Source of the DNA: a virus
Length of the DNA: 64,000 nucleotides
UHGV virus genome: UHGV-1367859
Reading direction: 5' to 3' (one strand)
The notes beneath the pieces are model-generated. The model worked only from the letters and a program-made list of their open reading frames with translations. It was not told the DNA's origin and did no database searches. How positions within the stretch are numbered: the stretch's first letter is position 1; the number at the start of each line of letters is the position of its first letter. This document shows positions 24,342 to 50,803 of this stretch, piece by piece. Both the position numbers and the translations under genes were made by a program.

Positions 24342-26741
24342 ATGAGTGATTTCACAAATTTACCCCCACAACAACTGCCATTCTCCAGAAAGAATAAGGC
24401 TTGGAGAAAGAAGCACCTTGACTGGGCTGGCTCTAAGACATTTTTCAACTATTCTTTGGTAAGGAAGAGTGTGATACATAAGAAAATCAACTATGATTTA
24501 CTTAATGGTAGGCTTCACATGAGTGACCTTGCAATGGTATTGAACCCTGATAACATAAAGGCAGGTTACATACCTGAAAGGATTCAACATTACCCTATAA
24601 TGAATAGTAAGCTGAATGTTCTTAGGGGAGAAGAGTCCGATAGAGTATTTGACTATAGGGTAGTTGTAACTAATCCAAATGCTATTTCTGAAATAGAGAA
24701 TAATAAAAAGCAGGAATTACTTGCAAGAGTTCAGCAACTATTAGCTGAGGAGACTCAATCAGAGGAAGAGTTCAATGCAGAGCTTGAAAAACTCAATGAC
24801 TTCTTTACTTTTGAGTGGCAAGACATGAGAGAGGTAAGAGCCAATGCTCTCCTTAATCACTACTCTAAAGAGCTTAATTTCCCCTTCCTCTTTAACCAAG
24901 GTTTTACTGATGCAATGGCAGTAGGTGAAGAGATTTACCAATGTGATATTGTAGGTGGTGAACCTATCATAGAAAGACTAAATCCTCTTAAAGTCAGAGT
25001 ATTCAAGTCAGGATATAGTAACAGGATTGAGGATGCTGATATGATTGTACTTGAGGACTATTGGAGTCCTGGTAAAATCATAGACACTTATTATGATGTC
25101 CTTACCAAAAAGGACATGGAGTACATAGAAAAGATGCCCAATAACACAGACCAAGTAACTGACTCTATGGATAACATAGATGATAGAATGGGGTTTGTAA
25201 ATGGGCACATGATAGGGGAAGAATTTACTTCTCAGGAAGGTTTCTTCTGGGACCCCATAGGAATGACAGATGGTGTAGGCACTTCACTTCTTCCTTTTGA
25301 TGTTGCAGGAAATATAAGGGTACTTAGAGTTTACTGGAAATCAAGAAGGAGAATTAAGAAAGTTAAGTCTTACGACCCTCAGACAGGTGAAGAGGTATTT
25401 AATCTCTACCCAGAAACTTACGTTATAGATAAGGACAAAGGTGAGGAGGAAAAGATATTATATATCAATGAAGCCTGGGAAGGGACAAAGATAGGTAATG
25501 ACATCTATGTCAACATGAGACCTAGAGTAGTTCAGTATAACAGACTATCCAATCCTTCAAGGTGCCATTTTGGTATTATAGGTTCTATCTATAACCTTAA
25601 TGACAACAAGCCTTTCTCTCTTGTTGATATGATGAAGCCCTATAACTATCTCTATGATACAATTCATGATAGGCTCAACAAGCTAATCTCAAGAAACTGG
25701 GGTATGCTTATTAACCTTGACCTTGCTAAGGTTCCTAAAGGATGGGAGATAGAGAAATGGATGTACTTTGCTAAGACTAATGGTATTGTAGTTACAGATA
25801 GTTTTAAGGAAGGCAATATTGGTGCTGCTACAGGTAAGCTTGCAGGTGCTCTTAACAATGCAAGTTCTGGAGTTGTCAATGCTGAACTTGGTAATACTAT
25901 ACAGCAATATACCAATCTTCTTGAGTTTATCAAGATGGAAATGTCTGATGTGGCTGGTATTTCTAGGCAAAGAGAAGGTCAGATAAGTAATAGAGAGACT
26001 GTTGGTGGTGTCGAAAGAGCTACCTTACAATCTTCTCATATAACTGAATGGCTCTTTATCATACATGATGATGTAAAGAAGAGGGTTCTTGAGGCATTCC
26101 TTGAAACAGCTAAGATAGCTTTAAGAGGCAGAAGTAAGAAGTTCCAGTATATTCTTTCTGATAATTCAAGTAAGGTTATGGACATAGATGGAGATGAGTT
26201 CTCTGAAAATGATTATGGCCTTGTTGTAGATAATAGTAATGGACTACAGGAGTTACAGCAGAAGATGGATATGCTTGCTCAGGCAGCTTTGCAGAATCAG
26301 ACTCTTACCTTCTCCACTATCATGAAGCTCTATAATAGCTCTTCTCTTGCTGAAAAACAGAGAATGGTTGAGAAGAATGAACAGGAGCTTATGCAAAGAC
26401 AGCAGGAAGCTCAACAGCAGCAATTACAGGCTCAGCAACAATAGGCTCAGATGGAAGCTCAGATAAGGGAAGCTGAAATGCAGCTCAAAGATACAATGAA
26501 TCAGAGAGATAATGAGACTAAGATACTTATAGCAGGTATAGGTTCTCAAAGTCAGGAAGATGGCATCCAAGAGCAGGAGTTTTCTGAAGAGGCAAGAGCT
26601 AATCTGTTTGAAAAGATGAGAGAGTTTGATGAGAGGCTCAAACTTGACAGAGAAAGGTTAGCCTTTGATAAGAAGAAAGCTCAAACTGATGCTGAACTCA
26701 AAAGAAAATAGATTAATAAGAAACCAAATACTAGTAAGTAA
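24342..26741 (+). CDS. portal protein (candidate) with two in-frame TAGs near the C-terminus
   Basis: A 700-aa track ORF follows TerL. It continues in frame through TAG 26442 and TAG 26709 to TAA 26739-26741. Gln-rich tail. Confidence 0.5.
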
Positions 26742-27655
26742 TGAGAAAATTTGATAATATAATACATTCAAATTCAGCCCCTCCTACCAATAGTCTGTGG
26801 CTCCATAATGACAAACTTCAATACCATAACAATGGCAAATGGACTGATATAATATTAACGATAGGAGAAGACAATCCAGAGGCTAAGTTAAAGTTTGAAG
26901 AGAGAGAACTGAGTCCCCTACATGACTATGTACCTGTTATACTTGTAAATAGAGACCGCGACGCGCCACTCAAAATTTTAGCAACGTTTTATAATGGTCA
27001 AGTAACAGCAATTGCCGATGGCAAGGCTATTATTTTCAATGTAGACTACAATGAGAATTGGCTTGTAAAGGAGACTAGAATTATTGACCTTACTCTACTT
27101 CCTACCTATGTTGACCTTGAACTAGGTGACTCTCCTGAGATTGAAGCATATAATAGAGAACAGCTGTCTAGGGTGGCAGGAACATAGTTCCTTGTTCATG
27201 CTGACTATGGCATTGGAGTAGGTTCTTGGTATTATAATGCAGGTGGAGAAGCTACCATCACTACAGCATCAGGTAACAGAGTGCATTACATATTAACTGC
27301 GGATGGAGCTTGTAGAAGGGATGCTGACCACTTTGACCATTCTGAATTATTTTATGATTTAGGGGTTATTAACTTAGCTGAAATAACTCCTACAACTATA
27401 ATAAATAAAGAGATAACTGACTCTGTAGGGGTGGCTCAGTTCAAAAAAGCTTCGAATGTAGTTCTGACTGTTCACACTTCAAATGGAGATTTTGAAGTTA
27501 ATTGCCCTCAGGTTTCAATGGGTCCTATTCAAAAGACATTTAATAGTCCTAGCATTGTAGCTGGTAATGAAGATAGTTGGAATTATCTTAAGATAATAGC
27601 TAACATCCAAACTGACCCAAGCAAAGTATTAATCACTATTGAGGCAATGCAATGA
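26741..27655 (+). CDS. hypothetical virion protein with in-frame TAG at 27185
   Basis: Track ORFs 26741..27187 and 27281..27655 share a frame. The exact 3' end is uncertain (see noticed_but_rejected). Confidence 0.45.
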
Positions 27656-28439
27656 GAAAGTTTAGAGCAATAGTACAAACTCCAAAAGAACCATAGGACC
27701 ATGAAGTCTTATGGTATTGGAAGGGTAATCTACTATACTGGAATAATGGAGGTTGGGAACCATTTCATACCAATATTAAAGCTTCAGATATAAAATTTGA
27801 GTCTATCTTTTTTGATAATAAAGATAATGTAGATGAGGTACTAAGGGCATTACTTGAGATAGTTATAAGTAACCAATGGAAAATAGAGAATGCTTTTACA
27901 GTAATTGAAGCTGACAATATCCTTACTAATTCATTCTTTATTGATAGTACTAAGTATTGGTTATCTGAGATTCTTCAACCTTTTACAGTAGGGGCTAAAT
28001 TTATTAAGGTAGGGAAAGGGTTTCTCTCTAAACAGAGAGCTAAAGCTGCTGTAATCAGAGAAGATGGAGTTCCTGTATTAGCTGTAAAGGGTTCCACTAT
28101 ACCTTGTACCCTTACTTAGCCTTTCTTATTCTTAAATCTGGAAGCAATAGACCCTGATTATAAATTCCCATTCTATGTTACTTTAACATTCAAATTTAAA
28201 GGAACTTCATTTGGTAATATAGAAATAGCTACCGTAGATTAGGATGGTGAGTCTATTGAAATAAAAGATACTTTGAGAATAGAACCTGATAATAAATGGC
28301 ACATATATAAAACTACTTTTTTACTTGATAGGTATAAAGGAATAAGGTTTAATTTAAATGCTGATGTAAGGATAAAGGGGTTAAATATGAGAATGAATGA
28401 GGCTAGGACCCTTCATCTCAAGCCAGAAAGTTTAATTAA
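27651..28439 (+). CDS. hypothetical virion protein with in-frame TAG(s)
   Basis: The ATG overlaps the previous stop as ATGA. The first TAG is at 27693. No track ORF covers it. The TAA end is near 28437-28446. Confidence 0.45.
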
Positions 28440-28453
28440 TAAATAATGTAGAT

Positions 28454-29551
28454 ATGACTAAATAGGAAAAGGATGAACTATTTAATGAGTTGCTAGCTTT
28501 TCTCTCTAGGTCTTCAGTAAGTGTTGAAGACCTTCCAGAGGCTGGCAGCTTAGATGATGTGAATAGTTTTCCTGCATATAAGAAAGACTCTAAGGAGCTG
28601 GTAACCATTCCTTCTAGTGCTCTTAAAGAAGCTTCAAATAAAGCTGATGCAGCTGCTCAGTCTGCACTTAGTGCATCTTAGCAATGTATGATTGCTGGAG
28701 CTAATGCTAACAATGCTGTATAGAGAGTCAACTAGACCTTGAATTCTTTGCCTGGTTAGGTAGAAACACTGGTTAATAATTCTACTAGTGCACAGTCTAA
28801 TGTAAATTCTAGAATTATTAATTTCTATACAAGTAGACCTTCTTCTAATGCACTTGAATTAGAAATAACTGTATCAGAAAATGATTATAGAACTTTTGAA
28901 TAGCTTCTGGAAGAAGAGTATGACTATGCTGATAGTTATGACCATAGACCAATAATATTTACAGTTCTACAGAATAATGGTGTACCTAAGTATAGGAAGA
29001 TTGTTTATGACAATAACCTTAGGGATAGTTAGAACTATATTGACTATGACTTAAGTGGACTTCATGAGAGAATAGATACTCTTGACAGTAGGGTTCCTTA
29101 TGATGCAGGAATAATAGAACTAGATTTAGTAAGTCAAGGAGAAACAACTTCCAAACAGGAAACTTTATTGCCTTCTAATAAAAATTATTTCAAATTTATA
29201 GAGATACTAGAATAGAGGGATAATAGGACTGTGCTATGTACTATTGTCCCATCTAAAACTTAGGTAGGAAGTCCTTATACTGGTTTCAGATTCTTATGTT
29301 CTCTTCATAAGGATGGCTATGACTGGTCTATTCTTACAGGTAAATATATTGATGTTGGTGAGGATGCAATAAACATTTATTATCTTTGTATTAAATGTTA
29401 TAAGCCAACTTTTGGAGTAGGTGATGGGATGAGTATATTAAAGTATCCTATTAAACAAGTAACTATTAGGCTTACTGAAGGTGAAGGAGATGGTCATTGT
29501 ACAGAATTGTAGGAGATTAAAGCAACTGAAATAGTTGAAAAAATGATATAA
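28454..29551 (+). CDS. hypothetical virion protein, about 10 in-frame TAG codons
   Basis: One frame runs from ATG 28454 to TAA 29549. Track ORF 28490..28681 is its N-terminal piece. TAGs seen include tct-tag-caa, gta-tag-aga and aac-tag-acc. Confidence 0.5.
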
Positions 29552-29574
29552 TAAATGATAAATGAATTTTAAGT

Positions 29575-30633
29575 ATGGAAATTGAATATTTAGGAAAAAG
29601 CTCTTTTAATAAAATATAGAACTAGCTTCAGCTTCTTAATTCCTATAGTGAATGGAAAGACATCACTGAAGAGTGTGTTCATATTGGATATAAAGTTAAT
29701 CCACAGATAGTTCCTTAGGATTTGCAAGAAGGTAATGACATTTTTGTGGAAGATGAAAATAGTATTGCAATAAATGCTGTAAGCCTCTTATCAGAGGATG
29801 CTACTTGGTGTGGTGACTTGAACGTTGCGTATAACTTTAAAATATTAATTTAGCCTAAAGCTTCTTCTAGCTCTGACATGGGTTTAATTGCTCAAACTAT
29901 CTTAAGTAAGGATTTTGTTGGAAAAACCCTCGTAGTAAAAGCTGCTAATATTGGAGAGGAAGTGGAAGAGGATTACTCCATATAGGACATAACAGTTAGT
30001 GAAGTTTTAGAAAATGGACTTACATATAAATAGAGGGAGAGCAGGTTTTTCAATGAGAAGGAGCAATTTGTGGCAAGCCTAATGGTAAGTTAGGCAGTAG
30101 TATCTTTCCATTATAACCAGGAATATAAATACAAGGTAGTTTACAAAGACTCTGTCTTTACAACGCCAGCCGACTTTGTAAATAAAATGGTATATGGAGA
30201 CGCTCCTTTTAGTATGATTGGTTAGAAGCTCTCCTCCGCAACTTTCAGTGATGATACCGATTAGATAAGGACCCTCTGGCCATAGGGTTGGGCCTCTTTT
30301 ATAGTTGTTCCAGTATATGAAGGCGAGCCGAATGGTAATGTTAAGTCAGGTCTAAGAGTTGAATATTATAGTGGTGATAACACTAAACATGAAACTATAG
30401 TGGACAATACATCATACCAGTCTATATATGGTTAGACTGATTATCTTATTATACCAAAAGTAAAAGGAGCTACCTAGTCAGACTACCTAGTTATAGGTAG
30501 GATTGACTCAGCTTTTAAACCAGTGGGAGTTGAAATCTATGAGATGACTGCTCCTTATAGATAGATTGTCGATAGGGTAAGTGATGTAGACTATAGAATC
30601 AGAGAATTAGAAAAGTAGCTGAATGCTACATAA
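29575..30633 (+). CDS. hypothetical virion protein, about 17 in-frame TAG codons (about 5%)
   Basis: One frame runs from ATG 29575 to TAA 30631. No track ORF of 60 aa or more covers it because of the TAG density. Confidence 0.5.
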
Positions 30634-30658
30634 ATATAATATTTTTTTTTCTAATCAC

Positions 30659-30704
30659 AATAAATCTACTTATTCTATCGTGTAAGTAGATTTATTGTTT
30701 TAAC
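30659..30704 (+). terminator. Rho-independent terminator
   Basis: Perfect 14-bp stem aataaatctactta / taagtagatttatt with a 10-nt loop, followed by gtttt. Confidence 0.7.
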
Positions 30705-30708
30705 TTTG
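30701..30708 (+). promoter_or_regulatory. -7 promoter box TAACTTTG only 4 nt upstream of ATG 30713
   Basis: ttttaactttgtgcgATG. The leader would be very short or absent. Confidence 0.3.
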
Positions 30709-30712
30709 TGCG

Positions 30713-31138
30713 ATGAAAAAATATATAATTTGTTGGATAATAGTAATAGCAAGTATACTTTCATCAAGCTTAATATCCTGCACAACTACAAGAGAGGTTG
30801 AAGTTCCTGTTTACATCGAGACTACAAAGACTGAATATATCAACTAGCTTTATAAAGATAGCATATTTATACATGATAGTATTGATAGATATATTTCAGG
30901 AGATACTGTGTATCAGTATAAATACAAGTACATATATAAGTATCTGAACAGAACAGACACTATAGTTAAGACTGATAGTATAGAAGTCCCTGTTGAAGTA
31001 AAGACAACTGAAATAAAGGAAGTCAATAAGTTAAAGGGCTATCAATCATTTCTTATGTGCTTTGGATTTGGCTTTATCCTTATCCTGCTTTATAAGGCTA
31101 TTAACTTTGGGAGAACCATTTTTAATAAGAGCAACTAA
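30713..31138 (+). CDS. lipoprotein with C-terminal TM helix (o-spanin-like candidate), one in-frame TAG
   Basis: MKKYIICWIIVIASILSSSLISC is a lipoprotein signal with a lipobox Cys. The C-terminal segment is FLMCFGFGFILILLY. Track ORF 30908..31138 is its C-terminal part. Confidence 0.4.
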
Positions 31139-31317
31139 CTAGTTGTTAGCCTAAATAAACCTTCTAGTTAGCAGTTATGATAACTACAGGTACTACGATA
31201 GTCTCAGTAACTTCAACTCTAGGTATGAGTACAGTAACTCGAATGCTAATTTAGGCTTGCTCAAATCTTTCAAGTGATAATGCTTAAAAGAGCAAAACTC
31301 AACTTGAAAATCAATAT

Positions 31318-31677
31318 ATGGAAATGATTGGGATGGAAACACTCATTACTGGAGGTATAGGGTTACTTACTACTATTGTTAGTGCTTGGGCTTCCTGGGT
31401 ATTTGCCAGGAAGAAATATAACAGTGAGGTAGATAATAACTTAATACAAAACATGCAAGAATCTTTGGACTTTTACAAGAAGTTGTCCGATGATAATAGG
31501 GCAAGGCTGGAAGAGGTTCTGAAGAGAAATGAAGACTTGGAAGATGAGGTTAGAGAACTAAGGGCACAGCTATTCAGCCTTATGAGTTCTATCTGTACTG
31601 ACCTCTCTTGTCAAATAAGAAGAAGGGAACTTACAAACTTAGATACATTCAAACATGAAGAAAGTAAATCTGAATAA
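31318..31677 (+). CDS. N-terminal TM plus coiled-coil protein (i-spanin-like candidate)
   Basis: The TM segment GGIGLLTTIVSAWASWVFA is followed by a charged coiled coil (RARLEEVLKRNEDLEDEVRELRAQL). Confidence 0.3.
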   Translation: MEMIGMETLITGGIGLLTTIVSAWASWVFARKKYNSEVDNNLIQNMQESLDFYKKLSDDNRARLEEVLKRNEDLEDEVRELRAQLFSLMSSICTDLSCQIRRRELTNLDTFKHEESKSE

Positions 31678-31909
31678 CCTATATGAGTCCCCTTATTCCC
31701 CTACAGACATCAAGATTTTATGGGTAGATAGGGATGAATCAACTGGGGACATTAGGGCAATCCACAGGTACAATGTTAAGACCAAGACTTGGGAACCTTA
31801 TCTAGTATCAGTGGATTATATGCAACCTACTCCTCCTGAATCTGAGACCACTCAAGTAATCAGTGAGGAACCCAAGAAAGAAGAAGTAACTAACTCTAAA
31901 GAAGAATAA
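31655..31909 (+). CDS. hypothetical protein
   Basis: 84 aa ORF. Confidence 0.3.
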   Translation: MKKVNLNNLYESPYSPTDIKILWVDRDESTGDIRAIHRYNVKTKTWEPYLVSVDYMQPTPPESETTQVISEEPKKEEVTNSKEE

Positions 31910-31966
31910 CTATGGCTAGAAGAGCAAAACCTATGTCCCCTAAAGCTGGACTTAAAAAGAAAAGAT

Positions 31967-32856: not shown

Positions 32857-33756
32857 ATGGAAAAAACTTATGTTTTTGACACTGCCGACAGAGGTGGATT
32901 TGATTCTACTGCACTCTTAGCAAGTCTAATGGGTAACAGAGGTGTAGACCCTAATCTAATGGCTATGCTCACTAATGGCTCCAAGAACCAAGATGCTTGG
33001 GGAGGTGGAGGAATGTGGTGGATTTGGGTAATCATTATGTTCTGGCTATGGGGTGGAAATGGTAGAAATGGTATGTTTGGTAATGGTGCTGCTGATGGTA
33101 TTCCTAATCAGCTTAATAATGATTGGGGTAGAGAAGTACTTCTTCAAGCTATCAATGGTAATGGTCAGGCAGTTTCACAACTTGCCACAACTCTTAATTG
33201 TGATGTTAATGCCCTACAAGGTGCTATAGGCAATGTACAGAACTCTGTACAATCTGTAGCTAGTCAGCTTGGTATGACAGGTCAGCAAGTTATCAACTCT
33301 ATTCAGCAAGGTAACTGTCAGTTAGGTAATCAAATGGCCCAGTGCTGCTGCAATATTCAAGATGCCATCACTAGGACTAACTATGAGAGCCAACTTTCTA
33401 ATGTAAATCAAACCAACACTCTACAGAATGCTATTAACTTTGTTAATAGTTCAGTGGAGAGAGGGTTCTCATCTACAGCCTATGCTACTGCACAGCAGAC
33501 TTGTGACCTAAAGAATGCTATTGCACAACAGACCACACTTATTAATGATAAGTTCTGTCAGCTAGAAATGAGAGAAATGCAGAATAAGATTGATGCTCTA
33601 AGACAGGAGAACAGCCAATTAGCTCTAGCTGCTTCTCAGCAAGCACAAACTGCTAATATCATTAGTCAAGTAAGACCTACCCCAACTCCTGCTTATGTAG
33701 TTGCAAATCCTTATTGTAACTGTGGTAGCCCTTATACTAATGGATGCAATTGTTAA
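32857..33756 (+). CDS. Asn/Gln/Gly-rich membrane-anchored protein
   Basis: TM segment MWWIWVIIMFWLWGG, then a low-complexity Q/N-rich region and a Cys-rich tail. All Gln are CAA/CAG and there is no TAG. Confidence 0.4.
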   Translation: MEKTYVFDTADRGGFDSTALLASLMGNRGVDPNLMAMLTNGSKNQDAWGGGGMWWIWVIIMFWLWGGNGRNGMFGNGAADGIPNQLNNDWGREVLLQAINGNGQAVSQLATTLNCDVNALQGAIGNVQNSVQSVASQLGMTGQQVINSIQQGNCQLGNQMAQCCCNIQDAITRTNYESQLSNVNQTNTLQNAINFVNSSVERGFSSTAYATAQQTCDLKNAIAQQTTLINDKFCQLEMREMQNKIDALRQENSQLALAASQQAQTANIISQVRPTPTPAYVVANPYCNCGSPYTNGCNC

Positions 33757-35519: not shown

Positions 35520-36668
35520 ATGGAAGAACTATCACTAGATAACATTCTGACAGGCTCTGAGGTAGAGAACCTGTTCATAGATGATGACACATCACAGGAG
35601 CCTGCACCTGATGATACAGGCAAAGAAAAGAAGGATGATAAACCCGATGAGGGTAAAGAAAAAGAAACTACTGAGGTTAATGTAGACTCCTTGTTTACAG
35701 ACAAACCAGAGAGCGTAGGTAGTGGAGATACAGAGGAAAAGGAAGATACTGACCCCGACAAAGGCAGTACTTCTCCCAAAATTTACTCTTCCATTGCCAA
35801 AGCCTTTGCAGAGGAAGGTATCTTCCCAGACCTTGATGAAGAAGCTATTTCTAAAGTAGAAACTCCTGAAGACTTAAGAGAGCTTGTAGAGCAACAGATT
35901 AAAGCTGGTCTTGATGAAAGACAGAAGAGGATTGATGAGGCTCTCAATGTTGGAGTGGAACCTGATACTATCAGGCAGTATGAAGGTGCCATCAACTATC
36001 TTGACAGTATCAAGGATGACTCTATTGCAGCTGAGACTGATGAAGGAGAAAAGCTTAGGAAACAGCTAATATATCAGGACTTCATCAACAGAGGTTACAG
36101 TAAGGAAAGGGCTTCAAGAGAAGTTCAGAAATCCCTTAATGGAGGTACTGATGTAGATGATGCAAGAGAGGCTTTGAAAAGCAACAAGGAATACTTCAAG
36201 TCCAAATATGAGGAAGTAATTGAAGATGCCAAGAAAGAGGAAGAGGCAGAAGTAGCAAAGAGGAAGGAACAGGCTGAGAAGCTGAGAACATCTATCCTCA
36301 CTGAGAAGAAAGTCTTTGGTGATATAGAAGTTGACAAGACAACAAGGCAAAGAATATATGACAATATTGCCAAGCCTATATATAAAGACCCTGAGACAGG
36401 GGAAATGCTCACTGCCATTCAAAGATATGAAATGGAACATAGGACAGAGTTCTTAAAGAATCTTGGTCTTATATTCACACTTACAGATGGCTTCAAGAAC
36501 CTTGATGGGCTTGTAAAAGGTAAGGTAAGAAAAGAAGTAAAGAGAGGGTTCAGAGAACTGGAAAATACTCTAAACAATACTGCTAGAACCTCAGATGGTA
36601 ATCTTAACTATGCAAGTGGAGTTGATTCAGAATCCTTCATAGGTAAGGGCTGGACCATTGATGCTTAA
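35520..36668 (+). CDS. acidic Glu/Lys/Asp-rich protein (head scaffold-like candidate)
   Basis: 382 aa with strongly acidic low-complexity helical stretches. It follows a promoter and precedes the capsid candidate. No TAG. Confidence 0.4.
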   Translation: MEELSLDNILTGSEVENLFIDDDTSQEPAPDDTGKEKKDDKPDEGKEKETTEVNVDSLFTDKPESVGSGDTEEKEDTDPDKGSTSPKIYSSIAKAFAEEGIFPDLDEEAISKVETPEDLRELVEQQIKAGLDERQKRIDEALNVGVEPDTIRQYEGAINYLDSIKDDSIAAETDEGEKLRKQLIYQDFINRGYSKERASREVQKSLNGGTDVDDAREALKSNKEYFKSKYEEVIEDAKKEEEAEVAKRKEQAEKLRTSILTEKKVFGDIEVDKTTRQRIYDNIAKPIYKDPETGEMLTAIQRYEMEHRTEFLKNLGLIFTLTDGFKNLDGLVKGKVRKEVKRGFRELENTLNNTARTSDGNLNYASGVDSESFIGKGWTIDA

Positions 36669-36696: not shown

Positions 36697-38211
36697 ATGG
36701 CTGGAAAACTGAATAAGTTCCAAATGATTGGCTTTTCTCACTGGAAAGGTCTGACAAAGGACAACCACCTTGGTCAAATCTTCCAGCTTGCTCCACAGAA
36801 GGCAACTAACCTAATGGTACAGCTATTAGCTTGGTATAGAGGTAAGACTCTTGATACCTTCCTAAGCCAGTTCCCTACAAAAGAGTTTGAAGATGACTCA
36901 GAATATTACTGGGATGTAATTGGCTCTACCAGAAGGAACATTCCTCTGCTTGAAGCAAGAGATGAGAATGGCAATGTAGTAACCGCAACAACTGTTGCCA
37001 ATGTGGGTGTTGGTACAGCTGTATTTGAGCTTGTCTTCCCTGAAGACTGGTTTGCTGATGGTGAAGTAATTGTAGGTAATCTGAATGAAGTATATCCCAT
37101 GAGGATTCTTGGTAATCCGAGAATGGAAGGTACTAATGCAGTTTACAAGGTAGAGCTAATGGGTGGAATAACCCAAGGTATTCCTGCTGAGAGACTCCTT
37201 CCAGGAGAAAGATTCAGCTATGAATATGCTCCTGTAGAAAGAGCACTTTCAAGGAAAGTTGGTGATGTTAGATTCACTTCTCCCGTATCTATGAGAAATG
37301 AATGGTCTACCATCAGAATCCAACATAAGGTACCTGGCAATATGCTCAACAAGAAACTTGCATGTGGTATTCCTGTAACAAAGGAAACTCCTACAGGTTA
37401 CACTAAGTCTGTGGTTAACATGTGGATGCACTATGTTGACTGGGAAGTTGAACAGACATTCTCTGAATACAAGAATAACATTCTTGCTTTTGGTAGAAGC
37501 AATAGAAACAACAATGGAGAGTATCTGAACTTTGGTAAGTCAGGTGAAGTTATCAAGATGGGTGCTGGTCTGTTTGAACAAATGGAAGTAGCAAATACCC
37601 AATACTACAACAAGTTCAGTCTGAAACTTCTTGAAGATGCTCTGTATGAACTGTCTGCATCCAAGCTTGACTTTGGTGACAGGTACTTCGTCATTAAGAC
37701 AGGTGAAAGAGGTGCTATACAATTCCATAAGGCTGTACTTCAGACTGTAAGTGGATGGACTCAGTTCACACTTAATGGTGATGCTCTGAATGTTGTTGAG
37801 AAGACACAAAGTACTCTTCATACTAATGCTCTTGCAGCTGGCTTCCAGTTTGTAGAGTACAGGGCACCTAATGGTGTAAGAGTGAAGCTTGATGTTGACC
37901 CATACTATGATGACCCAATAAGAAACAAGGTACAACACCCTGATGGTGGACCTGCCTTCTCTTACAGGTATGACATCATGTACATTGGTACTATGGACCA
38001 GCCCAATATCTTCAAGTGTAAGATTAAGGGACAAGATGAGTTCAGAGGTTATCAATGGGGATTGAGAAATCCTTTCACAGGTCAGCTTGGTAATCAATTC
38101 ATGTCATATGATGAAGATTCAGCTACCTTCCATAGGATGGCTACTCTTGGTATTTGTGTTCTTGACCCAACTAGAACAATGTCACTTATCCCTGCTATAC
38201 TACAGGGCTAA
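36697..38211 (+). CDS. major capsid protein candidate
   Basis: 504 aa, which matches the size of crAss-like HK97-fold capsid proteins. It is TAG-free, follows the scaffold-like gene and is followed by a strong terminator. Confidence 0.45.
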   Translation: MAGKLNKFQMIGFSHWKGLTKDNHLGQIFQLAPQKATNLMVQLLAWYRGKTLDTFLSQFPTKEFEDDSEYYWDVIGSTRRNIPLLEARDENGNVVTATTVANVGVGTAVFELVFPEDWFADGEVIVGNLNEVYPMRILGNPRMEGTNAVYKVELMGGITQGIPAERLLPGERFSYEYAPVERALSRKVGDVRFTSPVSMRNEWSTIRIQHKVPGNMLNKKLACGIPVTKETPTGYTKSVVNMWMHYVDWEVEQTFSEYKNNILAFGRSNRNNNGEYLNFGKSGEVIKMGAGLFEQMEVANTQYYNKFSLKLLEDALYELSASKLDFGDRYFVIKTGERGAIQFHKAVLQTVSGWTQFTLNGDALNVVEKTQSTLHTNALAAGFQFVEYRAPNGVRVKLDVDPYYDDPIRNKVQHPDGGPAFSYRYDIMYIGTMDQPNIFKCKIKGQDEFRGYQWGLRNPFTGQLGNQFMSYDEDSATFHRMATLGICVLDPTRTMSLIPAILQG

Positions 38212-39287: not shown

Positions 39288-40082
39288 ATGTCGCAAATTG
39301 AAAACCTTATGACTGCGGAAGAAAGAAGAATAAGAAATTAGGAATTTAGTAATGAGTTTGATATAATTTACAACAGCATTACAAGTAATCAGGCTCCTGG
39401 TTTGGATGAATATGAGAAGTCTGTATTTCTAACTAAGGCTCAAGATGAAGTAGTAAAAGCTTATTTTAGTCCAAAAACTAATAAGTCTCAAGAAGGTTTT
39501 GACGGAAGTGAGATAAGGTAGATTGATTTCTCTATGCTCGTGGGAGACCGTACAATAGCAGATGCAGACTCTTTTTTAGATGCACACTTTGGCAATAGAA
39601 AAAGCAGTAAAAGTATCATCCTTCAAGATGATATATTCATGTTTATCAACGAGTATGTTACAGTTTAGAGAGGTAATAACGAAACTAGATTAACTGTTAT
39701 CCCTATTAGTTACTTGGAGTATAATAGACTCACTAGCAAACCTTACAAATATCCTCTAAAAAACCAAGCTTGGAGATTGCTTATTTCTGACAGTAATAGA
39801 AAGAAAGTTGAATTAATTTTAGGATATTAGGATTCCTTAATTAGTTATACCTATAGATTTGTTAGACGTCCTAAAGCTATTAGACTAAGTACATTTGACG
39901 GTCTTACTATAGGAGGTGAGAGTAGTGAGGAATGTTGTGAGCTTGACCCAATACTATTTCCAGAGATTATTCAAAGAGCTTGTGAGCTAGCTAAGGCTGC
40001 TTATATTGGAGACCTTACTTCACAGGTTGCTCTTGGTCAGACATCACAGACTAATATGGGTATTGTAACTCAAAGTAGATAA
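39288..40082 (+). CDS. virion protein, paralogue A (5 in-frame TAGs)
   Basis: One frame runs from ATG 39288 to TAA 40080. EFSNEFD ... DEYEKSVFLTKAQDEV is homologous to the N-terminus of the next gene. No track ORF covers it. Confidence 0.5.
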
Positions 40083-40798: not shown

Positions 40799-41842
40799 AT
40801 GGTATTTTCAACTAACCAAGTAAGACAACTTTATGTAGTCACAGCAGTACAGGGTGCTGCAAAGGGGACAGATGGTAAGGTGAGTGAATCAGATGCTGCT
40901 GGTACCATTGCTCTCAAGGCTGATGCTGAAGGTAAGAACCTGTTCTTCCAGTATAAGGGGGCTGATAACCTTATGAGGAGTGACCTCATCAACATAGACA
41001 ATATTCTCTATGCCAAGGCTGTAAGTGCAGAGGCTGCTACTCAGAAGTATGCACTCAAGCAGGCTGTAGTTAAACTTGATGCTACTGTAAATGGTGGTGC
41101 TCCTATTGGAGGTCAGGATTACATCCTTAGAATCTGCATCAATCCTTATATAGGCATGTCTGATGAGGGACCCTATTATAAGTATGGTGCTGTACATGCT
41201 ACAAGAAACATGACTGCTGCTCAGTTCTATACTAAGCTTGCAGCTTCTCTCTACAAGAACTTCAGCAGAGAACTTAGCAAGATGCTTGAGTTCACTATAG
41301 CTGGAAAGGTTGTAGGAAGGGTAAAGACAGATGTCAATGGGGAAGAAACTCTGATTGATACTACTGGAGCAGCTATTACTGTAGCTGAGGACTATGAGGA
41401 TGGTGTTACTATCACAGAGGTAGAACAGGAATGGACTCGTGGTATCAAGGAGCAGTCTGAGGTTAATTTCACAGTTACTCCTACTACAGTAACCTTTGAT
41501 GGTGAAGAAGTTAAGTGGGGTACAGTGACAGTAAGTGACTCTGCTAAGGTAAGAAACAATGGCAGAATGATTGCAGACCTTGAGTACTTCTGCATGGGTG
41601 AAAGAGGTGACCAATACAGAGATATTGGATGGCCTAATAGCATTCCAACCAAGTATCTTATTGACAACCCTGATACTGCATACAATGTCCTTGAAATCCA
41701 CTATGCTTATGTAGGTTCTAATGAAGGACCACAAAGGTCAGAGAAGGATATCACTATTGTATGTGCTGACAAGGCACAGCTAAACAAGCTCATTGGTCAG
41801 TTTGCTGAAGCCTCTAAGGTACAGGTTGCAGAACTAGCCTAA
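40799..41842 (+). CDS. abundant structural protein candidate (347 aa)
   Basis: TAG-free and followed immediately by a strong terminator. The composition suggests a beta-rich Ig-like fold. Function not assigned. Confidence 0.4.
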   Translation: MVFSTNQVRQLYVVTAVQGAAKGTDGKVSESDAAGTIALKADAEGKNLFFQYKGADNLMRSDLINIDNILYAKAVSAEAATQKYALKQAVVKLDATVNGGAPIGGQDYILRICINPYIGMSDEGPYYKYGAVHATRNMTAAQFYTKLAASLYKNFSRELSKMLEFTIAGKVVGRVKTDVNGEETLIDTTGAAITVAEDYEDGVTITEVEQEWTRGIKEQSEVNFTVTPTTVTFDGEEVKWGTVTVSDSAKVRNNGRMIADLEYFCMGERGDQYRDIGWPNSIPTKYLIDNPDTAYNVLEIHYAYVGSNEGPQRSEKDITIVCADKAQLNKLIGQFAEASKVQVAELA

Positions 41843-42720: not shown

Positions 42721-43372
42721 ATGGTTAGAGGAATTATATACAGATATTTATCTCCTAGTGGGAAGTCTTATATTGGACAAACTACTAATGAGAAACTAAG
42801 ACGAAGAAGTTGGATGTCTGATAAATACCACTATGCTGGAGCTAAAATAGATAGAGCCAGAGCCAAGTATGGTAGTAGCTCATTCTTATATGAAGTATTA
42901 TATATCTAAGAAGCTCGCAATAGAGGACCTAAATAGATTAGAAATATACTACATAGGGCTTTATGATTCATATAGGAATGGTTATAATTGTACTATAGGT
43001 GGGGATGGAGTCCAAGGATTCAATATGAGTGTTTCTCAAAAAGAGCATCTCAGGGAATGTAATCTAGGAAAGAAATTATCTGCATCTACGAAGAGAAAGA
43101 TAGGAATTGCTTCTAGAAGATGGCAAAATACTCCAATTAATAGAGGAAGGATGTCCTCTATAAGAAAAGGCAGAAAAAATCCGAATGCAATAGCAGCAAT
43201 GACCTTAGCTAAAGAGAGACCTATATTGCAGTTCACAATGTCTGGTGAGTTTATTAGAGAGTTCCCCAGTATTAAGGCAGCTTATGAGTTTCTTGGTAAA
43301 GAAGGTAACATAACAAGTGTGTGTAAAGGTAGAAGAGCCTCTGCCTTTGGCTATGTATGGAAGTATAAATAA
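42721..43372 (+). pseudogene. GIY-YIG homing endonuclease disrupted by a frameshift near 42870-42909
   Basis: The GIY ... YIG half (IIYRYLSPSGKSYIGQTTN ... R ... Y) is in track frame 42667..42909. The catalytic Glu/Asn half and NUMOD repeats are in frame 42869..43372. Compare the intact copies at 18317 and 44125. Confidence 0.45.
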
Positions 43373-43394
43373 ATCAAAAAAAAGAAAAATAAAT

Positions 43395-44123: not shown

Positions 44124-44124
44124 G

Positions 44125-44832
44125 ATGAAAGAATATTGTTTATATAAACATACCACCCCATCAGGCAAAGTATACATAGGTATAACCAGCCAAGACCCAC
44201 TTCACAGATGGAACAATGGTAAGGGTTACTTTAACTGCAAGAACTCTCCCTTCAAAAATAGTATAATAAAGTATGGATGGGACAATATAACGCATGAAAT
44301 ACTTTATACTGGAATGACAGAACAAGAAGCTATAAGTAAGGAGAAACAATATATAGCCTATTATAAAAACTTAGGGGTCAGTCTTAATATAACAGATGGG
44401 GGAGAAGGATGCACAGGGGTTACTCCTTGGAACAAGGGTATTAAAGTTCCTTATGAAAAATCCAATAAGAGAAGGGGATGTACTCTTACAGAATCTCATA
44501 AGAAGAAGTTGAGTATAGCCCATAGAGGAAAATCATCTAGAGGTTCTGGATGGAAAATGAGTGAGAAACAAAAGGAATGTCTTAGACAAGTAAATCTTGG
44601 TAGGAAAAGACCTATGTGTGAAAGGTTGAAAATATCTGAGAACTCACCAATGTCTAAGATTGTACAAATGCTTGATAGGGAGGGAGAAGTACTAGCTGTG
44701 TACAAATCAGCTACAGAAGCAGCCTTAGCTCTAGGAGTAGATAAATCATGGTTAAGTAAGTGTTGCAGGACTGGTAAGCTTTGCAGAGGATACAAGTTCA
44801 AATATGGAGGAGTTCAGAAAGAAGGTACTTAA
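44125..44832 (+). CDS. GIY-YIG homing endonuclease
   Basis: CLYKHTTPSGKVYIGITS ... R ... YGWDN ... E ... Y ... NITDGGEG plus NUMOD-like repeats. Confidence 0.7.
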   Translation: MKEYCLYKHTTPSGKVYIGITSQDPLHRWNNGKGYFNCKNSPFKNSIIKYGWDNITHEILYTGMTEQEAISKEKQYIAYYKNLGVSLNITDGGEGCTGVTPWNKGIKVPYEKSNKRRGCTLTESHKKKLSIAHRGKSSRGSGWKMSEKQKECLRQVNLGRKRPMCERLKISENSPMSKIVQMLDREGEVLAVYKSATEAALALGVDKSWLSKCCRTGKLCRGYKFKYGGVQKEGT

Positions 44833-46023: not shown

Positions 46024-46033
46024 TTATATTAAC

Positions 46034-49000
46034 ATGATGTATTCAGATAATCATATATTTAAAGGCCTAAGGAGAGATGTTCACCCATCAAGACAAGATG
46101 AGTCTTTTTTATGGGATGCTTTAAATGTGAGACTTACTAATAGGGATAGTGATACTGGGTTTTCTATCACTAATGAGAAGGGAAATACGGACACTGGTGT
46201 TGTTTTTGATGGGTAGTACGTAGGACATTGTGTGCTTAATAGATACTTAGTAGTATTTACTGTAAGTTAGAATGACACTCAGGAAGTATCTAGAATATAT
46301 AGACTCCATGAAGATAAAGGGGAGTGGATTAAAGTTACTCTATTTGAAGGAGTGCTAGGTCTTGATGCTAATCACCCTCTAGAAATATTAGGGGATAGTG
46401 AGTCAGTTCTTGTGAATAAGTTGTATTGGACAGATGGAATTAACCAGCCTAGAGTTATTAATATAACTGCCCCAGAGTTGAAACTTCCTGAAGATATAGC
46501 TAGTAAAGTTATAGTAGACGGAGTTAATTTCTCAAATCCATAGAAAAGTGAGGGAGTTTCCTAGGAAGTTATAGAAAATCTAGAAAAGTGGTATGAAAAA
46601 GGAAATTGGATATACAGAGCTGAGTCTCCATTTGATTTTGTATAGAACCTATAGTTAAAAGAAAGAGTACTGGTAGGTAGAAGTTCCAGTCATGGAGAAT
46701 TTTCTCCTGGAGTAATTCAATATGCTCTTACATACTTTAATAAGTATGGGCAAGAAAGTAACATATTCTATGTATCTCCCATATAGTATATAAGGAATTA
46801 TGATAGAGCTGGTAATCCAGAAGAGAAGGTTATAACTTCTTTCACAATTAAAGTAGAAAATGTTGATAACTTTGATTATATAAGGGTTTATTCTATACAT
46901 AGAACTTCACTAGACGCATAGCCTACAGTTAAGATTGTAGCTGACTTAGACTTAAAAGATTGCTAGGAGGAAAGTGCTGAAGGAGAATACTGGTATGATG
47001 TGTTTGGTTCTGAGGATTAGCTGGTAAAAACAATTGAATATACAGATACTGGTCTTACTGGTTCAATAGAAGACCCTGCTAAACTATTATATACTGGGGG
47101 ACAAACAATATTAGCTGGAACTATCACTAGCAAAGAAGGAGTGATGTTTTATGGAAACATTACTGTTCAGAAAAATACTAAAGAACTAACTACATTACTT
47201 CAATAGGAAGAGGCTGAAAATGGGGACTCTTTAGGGTTAACAGATTGTTTTTTAGCCGAAGATACTTATGATAATTAGGGTATAAATAAATACTATCCTT
47301 ATCTACCATAGTTTAAGCCTGGTCATTTTAAGGCAGGAGAAACATATAGATTAGGAGTTCAATTTTAGTTTAAGACTGGAGAATGGTCAGAACCTATTCC
47401 ATTAAACAAAGTCATAAGGAATAGTGATGGTGATGGTGATGGTTTTCTTGATGTAGAGTTAAATAATTCATATTCTTGGGGCACTATTGACGGGGTGGAT
47501 ACTAAGGAACTTTAGTTATTCCCTAATGCAACTGCCTCATTATTAAAAGCTGGAGTAAGAAGGGCTAGAACTTGTGTTGTTTTCCCTAAGCCAGCGGAGA
47601 GAAATATTATATGTTAGGGAGTTTTAAATCCTACTGTCTACAGTGTGAGAGGAAGGCACATGAATAACCCATATGCAATGTCATCTTGGTTCTTTAGGCC
47701 ATCTCCTGTATATGTAGATGGAAAGCCAAAAGAAACCTCTACCTCGATAGATTAGGGGTCGACTATTTAGTATAAACATAATTATACACTTTTCAGTGGA
47801 GGTAATAGAAGTGCTGAAATATAGTCATCTCTGCCAGGAGATTCCAATAAGTCAATATAGGAAATTATTTCTCCCTCTGATGGTATAAAGTCTCATTATT
47901 CAACTTTTGCTGTTGATAGTAACTTAGTTACTTTACATTCCCCAGAAATTGAGTATGGGTCCTATATAAATACTACTCAATTAGAAGGAGCAAGGCTAAA
48001 TATTGTTGGAGCCGCTAGCCTACATGGATTGTATGGAGATATAGATTTAGCAGTGACCTCTAAAGCTAGTTCTCAGGCTGGAGGATTTATACATCATCCT
48101 GTAGGATTTCCAGTGAACTGTACTACTCCTAATACTACTGTTAATGGAGGATTTGTATCATCATGTTGTTTTGAAGATAAAATACTAAGAGGGGATTTTT
48201 TAGATGAGGATAGGACAGGTATTGTTAAATATTTAGTTTATCCTTGGCATAGAACAGGCTCACTAAATAATGATATTGTCAGGTCTCCTGAGATTATAGA
48301 GAAATCCGGAAGTGATAGAACAGCTATACTAAAATGGAAGATTATTTCCAATTTAAAGTATTTTGAAAGTAAGTCAACTTTTTTTAACTCTAATAACCAC
48401 AATATTAAAATTACAACTCCTAAGTTATTCTCTTCTAAAGAGGTTACAGGCTTAACTGTTCGTGTTCCACATTTAGACTAGGATGTACTATACTTTGGAA
48501 ATGTAGATGATATTGTATCAGCCACATCAGATTATCCTATTTATGCTGGTACTGATGATAGTATTTCACAAGTATCCCCTACTAATGTATCTACTTCTGG
48601 GGAGTCAGTAAGAATGAAGTATAAATCATCTCCTCACTTAGTATTCTCTTTATATGATGAGGATAACCCTAAGGTTATTCCAGTACTACCATACACTTCT
48701 GTTACTGGTGAGACTATAACTTCATAGTATACCCCCTCTGGATGGGAGAATAATACTTCTACCAGTACTTCATATCCTATCCTTTCATTTATAGGCTCAA
48801 AAACCTTTTATGGGACTTATAACAAAGAGGGGAACTTAGTACTAGATGTTGACGATACAAGTGTGACTGCTCTAGGAACCTATCAGATTGTAATGGCTTA
48901 CATTGGATCCATAGCTAAGCGTGTATTGGTTAAAAGGGTAAAGATAGGAGAAGCAGGGTATTGGCAGGTACAAAACTCAGGAACTAAAGTGACTGTTTTA

Positions 49001-50803
49001 GTGAAGAAAGGATGTATAATCTATCATCACTATGTAAATGGTGAGTGGGTAGGAGTTCTTCAGAATGCGGGGCCAATAAAATGGGGTCCTTTTGAAAACT
49101 TACAGGATGGTCATGATAACTTTTAGTATCTTGGGGATTAGGTATTATTAAACTTAAAGGTATCTCTCGGAAATATAGTTGGTATTACATCTTATAAAAT
49201 GTATTCAGAGCCATCTACAGATAATACAGATAATACAGATAATACAGATAATACGTTTACCATCCAGAATAGCACTCTGTAGTTACTTGAAGAGGATAAA
49301 GATTATTCCCCCACATTACCTATAGCTGAATTAACATAGTGGGTTGACCCAGACACTAGGTTTGGAGGTAAATCGGATGAAGCTATCAAAAATAACTTAT
49401 GGGTTCCAAGTAGTGAGTCAGTTCCTCTTGTATCAACTCCACATAAGATAATTACGATTCCTTATGCCTATGGGGATACATGGTGTACAAGATATGATTG
49501 TGTAAAGACTTATCCTTTTGCAGATGATGATACTAATTAGATAGTAGAAATAGGTTCATTTATGCTTGAGTCACATATTAATCTTGATGGAAGATACGAT
49601 ACTAAAAGAGGGCAGCTATCCAACTTCGACATTACTCCTGACTCTTATAAGATAAATGAAGTATACTCTTAGTTAGATAACTTCTTTAACTACAGAACAC
49701 TAGACAAGGACTATTATAAAATAGATACATTTCCTTACTAGGTAGCATGGTCCTTAAAGAAAAATCCCTAGTCTATAATTGACCCATGGACTAATGTCAC
49801 TTTAGCTAGTACCTTAGACCTTCCTGCTGATAAAGGGTCTGTAACATGTCTAACCTCCATCAATGATACTCTTATTGGCTTCTAGGAAAAATCTATTAGC
49901 TAGATTATGTTTAATTCTAGAGTATAGCTCAATCCTACAGACGGAGTACCTATTGAGATAGGAAATTCAAACAGAGTAGATGGGTTCAGGATTCTATCCT
50001 CTACTATTGGATGTGCTAATAAATGGTCTATTATTCCTACCTCAACAGGTCTATTCTTCATAGATAACGAGTCCAAAAGTATTTATAGATATGGTTAGGA
50101 ATTAGTAAATGTAAGTGAGCTTTCAGGAATGAGTTAGTGGGTTAAGAATGATGTTGACTTATCAGAGTGGACTCCTACAGGAATGGGAGTAAGAAGCTTT
50201 GTTGATAATATGAATGGGGATGTATATTTCTCTCCAGCTCATGGCGAAGAAGCTTTATGTTTCTCAACTAAGCTTAACTAGTTCACTTCCTTTTTAAGTT
50301 ATGGTGAAACTGAAGGTATGTTTGACTTTGAAGGTGGTTTTTACTCTATAAAATAGGAATAGGATAAAGTTAGGCTATGGGAGAACTTCACTGGGGTATA
50401 TAATGAGTTCTATGGTAACTTTAAACCATTTAGTTTCACTTATATATCTAATGGTAATTCTCCTTACACAAAAATTTTTGACACAGTGGAAGTTAATGCT
50501 GAAGTACGGAACTTTGGCCAAAAGGATAATTCTGATAAGCCATTTGATTTTATCCAAGCAGAGAATGACTATTAGAAAGCTTATACTGACCTCACTAATA
50601 GTAGAGATATAAGGAAGAAGTTTAATATATGGAGGATTAATATTCCTAGGTCTCCTTATGTAGCACAAGATGGTAAAGATGTTATAAGGCACTATGGTAG
50701 GGCAAGGATTAGAAATCCATGGAGTGAAATAACTCTAGGGAGTGCCTCACATAAAAACTAGAGAGTGACAATATATAATGTATCTACTAAGTACTCTATG
50801 TAA
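46034..50803 (+). CDS. giant virion/tail-fibre-like protein (about 1590 codons) with about 45 in-frame TAG codons
   Basis: ATG 46034 is in frame with track ORFs 45965..46216, 48029..48481 and 48863..49126 (coordinate differences are multiples of 3). The frame reaches TAA 50801 with no TAA or TGA. The track shows about 4.7 kb of gaps here. Confidence 0.55.
49220..49255 (+). repeat. tandem 9-bp repeat (GATAATACA) x4 encoding (DNT)4
   Basis: gataataca-gataataca-gataataca-gataatacg, inside the giant gene. Confidence 0.8.

Follow-up and report, generated by a model that had tools for sequence, protein, structure and literature searches.

Why neighboring genes of one late block should differ so sharply in their use of a single codon is the question raised by a 64,000-nucleotide stretch of the virus genome UHGV-1367859 (referred to here, at its full length of 64 kb, as the window; 37% G + C). 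The codon is TAG, which this phage appears to read as glutamine. The phage is a TAG-recoded crassvirus of the PhiCrAss001-like kind, a class already known, and late-gene recoding of TAG to glutamine (code 15) with phage-borne suppressor tRNAs has been published for crAss-like phages (PMC7886860; bioRxiv 10.1101/2021.08.26.457843; PMC9523058). When late genes are called with TAG as a sense codon and termination at TAA and TGA only, the plus strand between ~19.7 and 62.5 kb forms a tight block of long open reading frames (ORFs), many of them with in-frame TAG. A first-pass annotation of the window had noted that TAG density jumps between adjacent structural genes within 24,342-50,803, and had offered expression-related selection, a mosaic origin from a fully recoded donor or graded timing control as possible reasons. 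In our reading, the patchwork is mainly a recombinant mosaic, with old recoded blocks placed in a backbone common to this phage and a TAG-free relative; we give this explanation a probability of roughly two in three.

Expressed per glutamine-type codon, i.e., as TAG/(TAG + CAA + CAG), the TAG share of late genes spans 0-67%, with 93 in-frame TAGs across 32 late genes. The heterogeneity is pronounced both over all late genes (X2 = 229, df 31, p ~ 5e-32; 0 of 100,000 Monte Carlo draws as extreme) and inside the originally flagged coordinates (X2 = 164, df 27, p = 1.5e-21). The sharp variation reported at first thus persists after gene calling with table 15, which does not reveal a uniform TAG frequency. 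The distribution displays two classes and no gradient. Genes 27652.., 28454.., 29575.. and 46034.. reach 43-67% and are mutually homogeneous (p = 0.68), and the remaining 24 genes within the flagged coordinates likewise form a homogeneous set, at 4.3% (Monte Carlo p = 0.07). Within the rich class, TAG makes up 43% of glutamine-type codons in gene 27652-28446, 59% in gene 28454-29551 (10/17; 2.7% of all codons), 67% in gene 29575-30633 (14/21; 4.0% of all codons) and 65% in the tail muzzle gene at 46034.. (40/62; 2.5% of all codons). The last three had been singled out correctly as the richest, at a density of 3-5% of codons that is slightly high compared with the true 2.5-4.0%. The genes listed as TAG-free (36697.., 35520.., 40799.., 32857.. 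and 53382..) all hold no TAG, including the Q-rich gene 32857..33756, where glutamine is encoded by 16 CAA and 16 CAG. The same agreement holds for the genes credited with one or two TAGs, namely the portal gene (two), 26741-27655 (one, 11% of its glutamine-type codons) and 38274.. (one).

Assembly chimerism was considered as the cause of the patchwork and ruled out by assemblies from three independent samples (L166; L167; L082/L002/L081), in which junctions, gene order and TAG counts recur at 97-99.9% identity.

The closest relative beyond the window's own strain group is the contig IMGVR_UViG_3300045988_042591, which offers a comparison at the level of single blocks. Its major capsid protein (MCP) is 98.6% identical, its portal 95.5% and most of its other virion genes 81-100%. 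It displays no in-frame TAG in any aligned gene, and its 37 genes with window homologues stop at TAA (28) or TGA (9) and never at TAG. TAG is in effect unassigned in this relative, a state proposed as a recoding precursor by Borges et al. (bioRxiv 10.1101/2021.08.26.457843). The tRNA array is the same and in the same order, except that the suppressor tRNA(CUA) and ~ 330 nt with two small ORFs are missing over the 64 kb of its 104 kb that were scanned for a suppressor. The sister strain of the window, contig IMGVR_UViG_3300045988_037736, shares the suppressor and TAG pattern of the window, including 40 TAGs in a muzzle gene that is 98.9% identical.

TAG use follows recombination blocks and similarity to the TAG-free relative and is not ordered by gene class. 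Genes with at least 80% amino acid identity to it hold four TAGs among 217 glutamine-type codons (1.8%), as compared with 88 of 389 (22.6%) in genes whose orthologue there is divergent, incomplete or absent. When blocks are binned by nucleotide identity, the TAG share rises from 3.4% (at least 82% identity) through 9.7% (75-82%) and 21% (below 75%) to 34% where no similarity is left (p = 4e-16). The blastn map resolves sharp dissimilar blocks, among them the suppressor cassette, two TerL inteins and two homing-endonuclease genes, with further dissimilar stretches in part of Ring3/4a and in parts of cargo protein 2 (CARGO2) and the giant virion protein. Two blocks alone, which occupy 22% of the late region, account for 72 of the 93 late TAGs. 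Block 1 extends from the portal stop codon to a point inside the spanin-like gene. Block 2 begins ~ 76 codons into the muzzle gene and ends ~ 264 codons into the gene for cargo protein 1 (CARG1), enclosing two weak matches (65-69% identity); five of the six CARG1 TAGs fall in its dissimilar N-terminal part. Fourfold synonymous divergence from the relative (K4) amounts to 0.10-0.7 over the backbone (0.24 for MCP). Sharp blocks of high and of no similarity that differ in synonymous divergence are thus present, as a mosaic requires, and among the three explanations offered initially this one is the best supported, although no actual donor was found.

The backbone itself has gained few TAGs. CAG has changed to TAG at five of 154 ancestral CAG sites, compared with CTR to TTR at 11 of 61 leucine sites (p = 6e-4), indicating either that the suppressor is young there or that TAG is selected against there. 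On these substitution counts, accumulation in place over the timespan of the backbone could not have sufficed for a share of 63%. We propose that the TAG load of a gene would mostly be set by how long its DNA has lived in suppressor-carrying genomes. The backbone, common to a suppressor-less relative, would carry only few fresh CAG to TAG transitions (~ 2-4% of glutamine codons). The two recombination blocks (the fibre-like genes, and the muzzle core with the CARG1 N-terminus) would have an older history inside recoded phages, where TAG would be interchangeable with CAA and CAG at or above mutational equilibrium (~ 63%). As a second layer, the ~ 535-copy MCP and the auxiliary capsid protein would resist TAG, and the muzzle would be enriched in it. 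The TAG-rich blocks may derive, by import or by retention, from a lineage recoded for a long time. We further infer that suppression is efficient enough to yield a 40-TAG protein, and that the biases between gene classes have selective reasons.

The decoding of TAG as glutamine can be followed at several levels. In the window, the closest paralogue of the tRNA(CUA) is the phage tRNA-Gln(UUG), which is 67% identical and has a near-identical D-arm; the tRNA(CUA) therefore most likely decodes TAG as glutamine. The phage tRNA-Gln repertoire comprises UUG and CUA and lacks CUG. All seven alignable isolated TAGs in conserved genes (TerL codons 53 and 953, portal codons 701 and 790, and one each in 30713.., 34983.. 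and 38274..) correspond to CAG in the TAG-free relative, each by a single C to T change. The longest TAG-bearing ORF runs over 1589 codons with 40 TAGs and without a single TAA or TGA. Between strains, gene g27652 displays a ratio of nonsynonymous to synonymous rates (dN/dS) of 0.04, its TAGs being conserved apart from one CAG/TAG polymorphism, and the other TAG-rich genes exchange TAG for CAG or CAA. Because of this low dN/dS and of TAGs that are kept or swapped for glutamine codons, the TAG-rich genes are real genes. For crAss-like phages, PMC9523058 describes the TAG to glutamine assignment as confirmed by metaproteomics, and the window phage itself is predicted from its sequence to translate late TAG as glutamine via its own tRNA(CUA). 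Early genes avoid the codon: the minus-strand genes at 1-8153 and 62568-63923 contain no in-frame TAG, with the exception of gene 6715-7104. In this minus-strand gene, TAG occupies codon 109 of 130, the sister-strain orthologue aligns to residues 1-96 only, and termination at the TAG would leave no overlap with the gene that follows. The codon is probably a genuine stop there; if so, the phage would use TAG as a stop in an early gene and as glutamine in late genes.

The suppressor tRNA resides in a small cassette together with two ORFs. In a three-way alignment, the cassette is bounded by a conserved promoter-like sequence and tRNA-Thr and forms a clean indel against the TAG-free relative. The promoter-like sequence 5' of it is kept in that relative; the cassette itself finds no blastn similarity there. 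Exact search with a 30-mer of the suppressor matched only the sister strain, and the suppressor gave zero matches in JGI metagenomes and GTDB genomes. A relaxed pattern retrieved only eukaryote-type tRNA-Gln(CTG) in metagenome-assembled genomes (MAGs), ~ 67% identical and probably contamination, and a small ORF of the cassette had no homologue beyond the lineage. Near-identical copies of that eukaryote-type tRNA-Gln(CTG) occur on short MAG contigs in GTDB (L169-L177) assigned to Chloroflexota, Rickettsiales, Desulfobacteraceae, Dysgonomonas and others, most likely reflecting eukaryotic contamination of the MAGs. Codon 16 of the cassette ORF directly 3' of the tRNA(CUA), at 15726-15875, is an in-frame TAG.

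The history of the muzzle gene can be distinguished from that of its surroundings. Its K4 to the TAG-free relative is 1.95, i.e., saturated, as compared with 0.50 for Ring1 just upstream and 0.64 for CARG1 downstream. Because synonymous rates are independent of protein constraint, this saturation indicates that the muzzle gene has not diverged in place since the split of the backbones. In a search of 5.8 billion proteins, the best-matching alleles from beyond the lineage reach 50-53% identity and reside on three contigs (L163-L165), whereas the allele of the TAG-free relative is only 37% and those of annotated crassviruses 35-37% identical. The homologues carry the Pfam domains crAss_MUZ and crAss_MUZ_C. 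The three contigs are recoded over their whole late block, with TAG shares of 26-28% in the giant protein, 24-38% in cargo 2 and 46-56% in the muzzle. For the muzzle alone, identities are therefore incongruent: its nearest alleles are recoded, whereas the window MCP is 98.6% identical to that of the TAG-free relative and 79-80% to those of the three contigs. The suggestion that TAG-rich genes should lie closest to recoded phages is borne out in this gene; the fibre genes have no homologues outside the lineage. IMG/VR scans with the muzzle and g29575 proteins returned the sister strain or nothing.

Within the muzzle, glutamine columns shared with the alleles of the three recoded contigs use TAG in ~ 65% of cases in the window, and glutamine or TAG is the commonest partner of a window TAG in the alignments. 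The columns occupied by TAG are as conserved as those of CAA/CAG, and a preference of TAG for variable sites was rejected (p = 0.86). Muzzle TAG is an equilibrated glutamine codon, fully interchangeable with CAA and CAG. These columns also bear on the possibility that TAG accumulated in situ in fast-evolving genes, where diversifying selection would tolerate many amino acid replacements, entering from AAG, GAG, TAT, TTG and CAG without any recombination. The TAG-rich genes are indeed the fastest evolving, and many muzzle TAGs align with K, E, D or N in relatives. However, such a process would not saturate synonymous sites of the muzzle relative to its flanks, nor is TAG over-represented at variable columns or scarce at conserved glutamine columns. 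Moreover, cargo 2 and the giant protein diverge fast as well and are nevertheless TAG-free or nearly so, in the window (0/28 and 4/108) as in the sister strain (0/33 and 0/114). Accumulation in place is accordingly very improbable. Shared TAG positions were also considered as a sign of common recoded ancestry of the muzzle alleles; positions are randomized and uninformative (p = 0.56-0.98). Residues ~ 1010-1025 of the muzzle (window ~ 49060-49110) form a tandem peptide repeat, (DNT)x4.

Comparison between strains adds a shorter timescale. Between the window and the sister strain, the muzzle gene differs by ten nonsynonymous and no synonymous changes (dS = 0; compared with L081, 9920-14749), as opposed to a dS of 0.07-0.08 for portal and MCP. 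This would place the spread of the muzzle allele over suppressor-bearing backbones in the very recent past. Genes g26741, g28454 and g29575 together display 23.5 nonsynonymous against three synonymous changes relative to L166. These counts suggest diversifying selection on host-interaction genes in addition to the very recent spread of the muzzle allele.

Block 1 is the second TAG-rich segment. Its genes g26741 and g27652 (26741-28446) share the N-terminal motif MRKF...LW...NNG.W, which weakly matches the capsid-pocket anchor of the crAss001 head fibres gp21 and gp29 (E = 0.007 and 0.03). This suggests that the block-1 genes encode head fibres in which a constant anchor is joined to distal domains that can be exchanged. 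Allele exchange is visible already in the sister strain, where g29575 is represented by an allele of 34% identity with a TAG share of 7/21, and where cargo 2 and the giant protein are other alleles (30% and 22% identical) without TAG. The lineage repeatedly takes up TAG-free alleles, and recombination is rampant at all scales. In L167 (8491-9582), a single gene of 363 codons replaces g28454 and g29575; it is 97% identical to 43% of g29575 and represents a deletion or fusion variant.

Fully recoded relatives allow the effect of gene class to be separated from that of history. In a pool of eight to eleven independent recoded relatives outside the window lineage, the late-gene TAG baseline is 29%. 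Portal (30%), scaffold (29%), giant protein (27%) and cargo 2 (30%) all lie at this baseline. The MCP is depleted to 6.7% (11/163 in eight relatives; p = 3e-13), the auxiliary capsid protein is depleted to 7.7% (4/52 in eight relatives; p = 3e-4), and the muzzle is enriched to 52% in the pool (p = 1e-14), an enrichment found in all six recoded relatives examined. Individual muzzle shares are 43-75% in L048, L064, L065 and L163-L165.

The two depleted proteins are the most abundant ones of the PhiCrAss001 virion, with nine copies each per T = 9 asymmetric unit (PMC10172136), and a 2026 preprint describes a TAG-free MCP in one other recoded crassvirus. Expression level could therefore be the primary force, if TAG were slightly costly through incomplete suppression or competition with release factor 1 and were purged from highly expressed genes but tolerated in those for low-copy proteins; the backbone CAG to TAG changes, ~ 5-fold rarer than the matching leucine changes, would fit. 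Low-copy proteins are, however, equally TAG-poor in the window, as illustrated by the portal (12 copies; 2/50), the giant protein (~ 6 copies) and cargo 2, whose families reach 27-30% in fully recoded relatives. Conversely, the probable head-fibre genes are TAG-rich although 60-120 copies are expected. Because portal, scaffold, cargo 2 and giant protein lie at 0-4% in the window instead of ~ 29%, avoidance linked to expression cannot explain the window pattern. The codon adaptation index (CAI, relative to the capsid genes), which the first-pass annotation had proposed as a check, was rejected as a predictor of TAG use (rho -0.23, p = 0.38). In partial correlations with TAG fraction, similarity to the TAG-free relative retains its effect (r = -0.53, p = 0.03) and CAI has none (r = -0.05); nor is the bimodal distribution graded by abundance. 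Expression-level selection is thus unlikely to be primary. TAG avoidance by capsid genes is real but secondary, a general tendency in recoded relatives, and only for the MCP and the auxiliary protein does the earlier proposal hold.

A regulatory role makes a different prediction, namely that TAG, concentrated by selection in chosen late genes such as neighbors of the lysis cassette and distal tail genes, blocks their translation until the suppressor becomes abundant and thereby times assembly and lysis, as in the model of Borges et al. These authors found a significant preference for TAG in four crAss-like families, which encode an amidase, a spanin, a tail tube protein and a product without assigned function. 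In the window, the spanin-like gene comes directly after the TAG-rich genes 27652-30633, and both the consistent enrichment of the muzzle in six of six recoded relatives and a share of 63% in the TAG-rich genes, above the neutral 33-43%, could be seen as adaptive. Yet a lysis-gene preference of the Borges type is not observed in the window, where the endolysin (0/9), holin-like (0/4) and spanin-like (1/3) genes are almost devoid of TAG. A single TAG suffices for dependence on the suppressor, and forty would add little control at a cost in yield. TAG-rich and TAG-free genes also interleave on the same strand within one late block, and the TAG boundaries coincide with breakpoints inside genes (the muzzle N-terminus and codon ~ 264 of CARG1) instead of gene or operon edges. 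Graded timing control, as raised by the first-pass annotation, finds no counterpart in a bimodal pattern with lysis genes almost free of TAG, and adaptive regulatory enrichment is highly unlikely overall.

The recombinant-mosaic explanation does not account for everything, and several observations weigh against it. The TAG-rich genes, at 63%, exceed both the 33-43% expected at neutrality from the leucine TTR/CTR and third-position A/G ratios of the same genes and the 29% baseline of relatives, an excess that history leaves unexplained. Some dissimilar blocks are TAG-free or nearly so (CARGO2 C-terminus, 0/20; variable parts of the giant protein, 1/34), so divergence alone fails to predict TAG, and the origin of such blocks from a TAG-free pool is only assumed. 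No donor was found for the TAG-rich blocks or the suppressor cassette, the best muzzle relative being 53% identical, and the fibre-block genes had no homologues outside the lineage, with g29575 represented by same-lineage copies only among 5.8 billion proteins. The TAG-free relative, at K4 values of 0.1-0.7, is not extremely close, and the low TAG content of the backbone could partly reflect purifying selection and not youth. The absence of the suppressor from that relative rests on 64 kb of the 104-kb contig, and the pooled Fisher tests treat relatives without regard to phylogenetic relatedness. Finally, two courses of exchange are equally consistent with the data: the old blocks may have entered a backbone that was recoded only recently, or TAG-free DNA may have replaced most of a genome recoded long ago.

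The excess in the muzzle points to a possible force beyond history that favours TAG there, either tRNA supply or selection tying host-interaction alleles to suppressor genomes. We tentatively hypothesize, while regarding it as rather doubtful, that the code difference acts as a one-way valve for recombination among crassviruses that circulate together: TAG-free alleles may enter suppressor-carrying genomes, and TAG-laden alleles could not leave them. Selection would then load the muzzle and fibre genes with TAG in excess of mutational equilibrium, locking host-range alleles to suppressor-bearing backbones. If true, TAG density would record the provenance of phage modules in the manner of a clock and would at the same time privatize alleles against standard-code competitors during co-infection.

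The gene set of the window is that of a Crassvirales virion module in conserved order, comprising portal, MCP, the auxiliary capsid protein (AuxCP), rings R1-R4, tail hub A/B, muzzle, cargo 1 and 2 and the giant RNA polymerase-related protein. Pfam matches on orthologous loci retain this order (Crass_capsid, CrAss_Ring_1/2/3_4, crAss_AuxCP, crAss_THA/THB, crAss_MUZ, crAss_CARG1, crAss_CARGO2), and DNA of the MCP region matches the crAss-like phages cr116_1 and DAC15/17 at ~ 75% identity. Roles were taken from PDB and Pfam matches; PHROGs returned almost no functional names for late genes. Coordinates are collected in Table 1.

Table 1. Features of the window, with TAG given per glutamine-type codon or as number of in-frame TAGs
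Feature	Position	Strand	TAG	Remarks
Endolysin	14357-14956		0/9	Amidase_2 and PG_binding_1
Suppressor cassette	15625-16095	+		tRNA(CUA) and two small ORFs, 15726-15875 and 15889-16032 (47-49 codons)
Suppressor tRNA, anticodon CUA	15639-15711	+		ARAGORN
TerL	19748-24241	+	5 TAGs	1497 codons, two intein-type insertions
Portal	24342-26741	+	2/50	backbone
Foreign block 1	26753-30817	+	28 TAGs	four probable head-fibre genes 3' of portal
Spanin-like	30713-31138	+	1/3	
Holin-like	31318-31677	+	0/4	
Q-rich gene	32857-33756	+	0/32	16 CAA, 16 CAG
Scaffold-like	35520-36668	+	0/11	
MCP	36697-38211	+	0/23	
Gene 38274..	38274..		1 TAG	
Ring 3/4 protein	39288-40082	+	4/15	intermediate; small foreign patch 39537-39935; CrAss_Ring_3_4 (Pfam) on orthologues
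Auxiliary capsid protein	40799-41842	+	0/15	crAss001 gp36 homologue; PDB 7qof gp36, E = 1e-69
Tail muzzle protein	46034-50803	+	40/62	crAss001 gp44 homologue; 1589 codons; PDB 7qok, E = 8.5e-213
Foreign block 2	46263-51696	+	44 TAGs	muzzle core and N-terminal third of CARG1
CARG1	50906-53380	+	6 TAGs	cargo protein 1
CARGO2	53382-55160	+	0/28	cargo protein 2
Giant virion protein	55145-62497	+	4/108	

Several further features of the window lie outside the two blocks. The tRNA array consists of 21 genes at 11559-16276, and two further tRNA genes are located on the minus strand. The endolysin gene is embedded in this array, distant from the spanin- and holin-like genes at 30713-31677. Just 5' of the array and outside the structural block, gene 10392-11426 has seven TAGs among 16 glutamine-type codons and matches nothing in Pfam or PHROG. 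The sister strain carries it (96% identity, five TAGs), and both this gene and 9689-10261 are absent from L180, a more distant TAG-free relative.

Mobile elements are frequent. The two TerL insertions (20894-22014 and 22760-23767) are missing in the TAG-free relative, and the TerL orthologue of L166 matches Intein_splicing and LAGLIDADG_3. TAG codons 583 and 597 of TerL lie inside the first intein, so that intein and recoding meet in one gene. GIY-YIG/NUMOD homing-endonuclease-like genes are located at 18317-18982, 42833-43372 and 44125-44832, each flanked by conserved genes and two of them between virion genes; the TAG-free relative lacks all three. In the recoded relative L164 (1246-3594), the MCP is called as two pieces around an HNH + NUMOD4 gene, which has the look of an intron- or intein-type insertion.

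The window can be placed among known recoded phages. Like the published recoded crAss-like phages, it has a tRNA(CUA) in a tRNA array, TAG read as glutamine in the late structural block and early genes compatible with the standard code. Ivanova (2014) is reportedly a source for code 15 recoding in phages as well. Unlike in published descriptions, which treat the late block as a single alternatively coded unit, most late genes of the window are nearly TAG-free, and TAG is concentrated in two recombination blocks. A beta-group genome described by Yutin et al. acquired a TAG suppressor and began accumulating TAG in conserved genes (PMC7886860). The window resembles it in belonging to the same broad group, in a suppressor gained relative to suppressor-less closest relatives and in few TAGs in conserved genes, and may represent the same or a similar lineage. 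The published account is one of gradual accumulation alone; in the window, TAG-saturated genes with up to 40 TAGs and of another history are added. The family bias of Borges et al. is paralleled insofar as TAG/(TAG + CAA + CAG) differs between gene families and a tail gene is enriched. In contrast to that study, lysis genes of the window are not enriched, and what dominates is the effect of recombination blocks and of closeness to a TAG-free relative. Neither "recombination" nor "horizontal" appears as a word in Borges et al. (bioRxiv 10.1101/2021.08.26.457843), where this factor was not considered.

Borges et al. also reported Agate phages with close pairs of standard-code and recoded members at more than 90% average nucleotide identity. 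As in these pairs, the code status shifts over a short evolutionary distance, and the stop codon concerned has disappeared from the standard-code relative. The Agate pairs involve TGA, and the present comparison, unlike theirs, resolves shared from foreign blocks. Tailed phages are modular mosaics that exchange tail-fibre and host-range modules by recombination. The window conforms to this picture in its sharp block edges at or inside genes, its swaps of host-interaction genes among nearly identical strains and its strain-specific homing endonucleases and inteins. In contrast to ordinary mosaicism, its modules carry a code signature, their TAG density, which tells in what kind of genome they have resided and would make them transferable only into suppressor-carrying genomes. 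We found no published link of TAG density to recombination blocks, nor of asymmetric gene flow over a code boundary.

Recoding of stop codons by gut phages is commonly interpreted as a device for late timing; the window shows that within one genome TAG load can mostly reflect recombination history, with TAG-saturated modules sitting in a backbone that has only recently coexisted with the suppressor. Mosaicism consequently has to be controlled for in tests of preferential recoding of gene families before any conclusion on regulation is drawn. TAG density offers a cheap marker for dating and tracing modules over the boundary between recoded and standard-code phages, and raises the testable question of whether a code difference restricts gene flow asymmetrically between phages of the same host. 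The recoded phage and its TAG-free, suppressor-less relative constitute a matched natural pair for studying how a code change becomes established.

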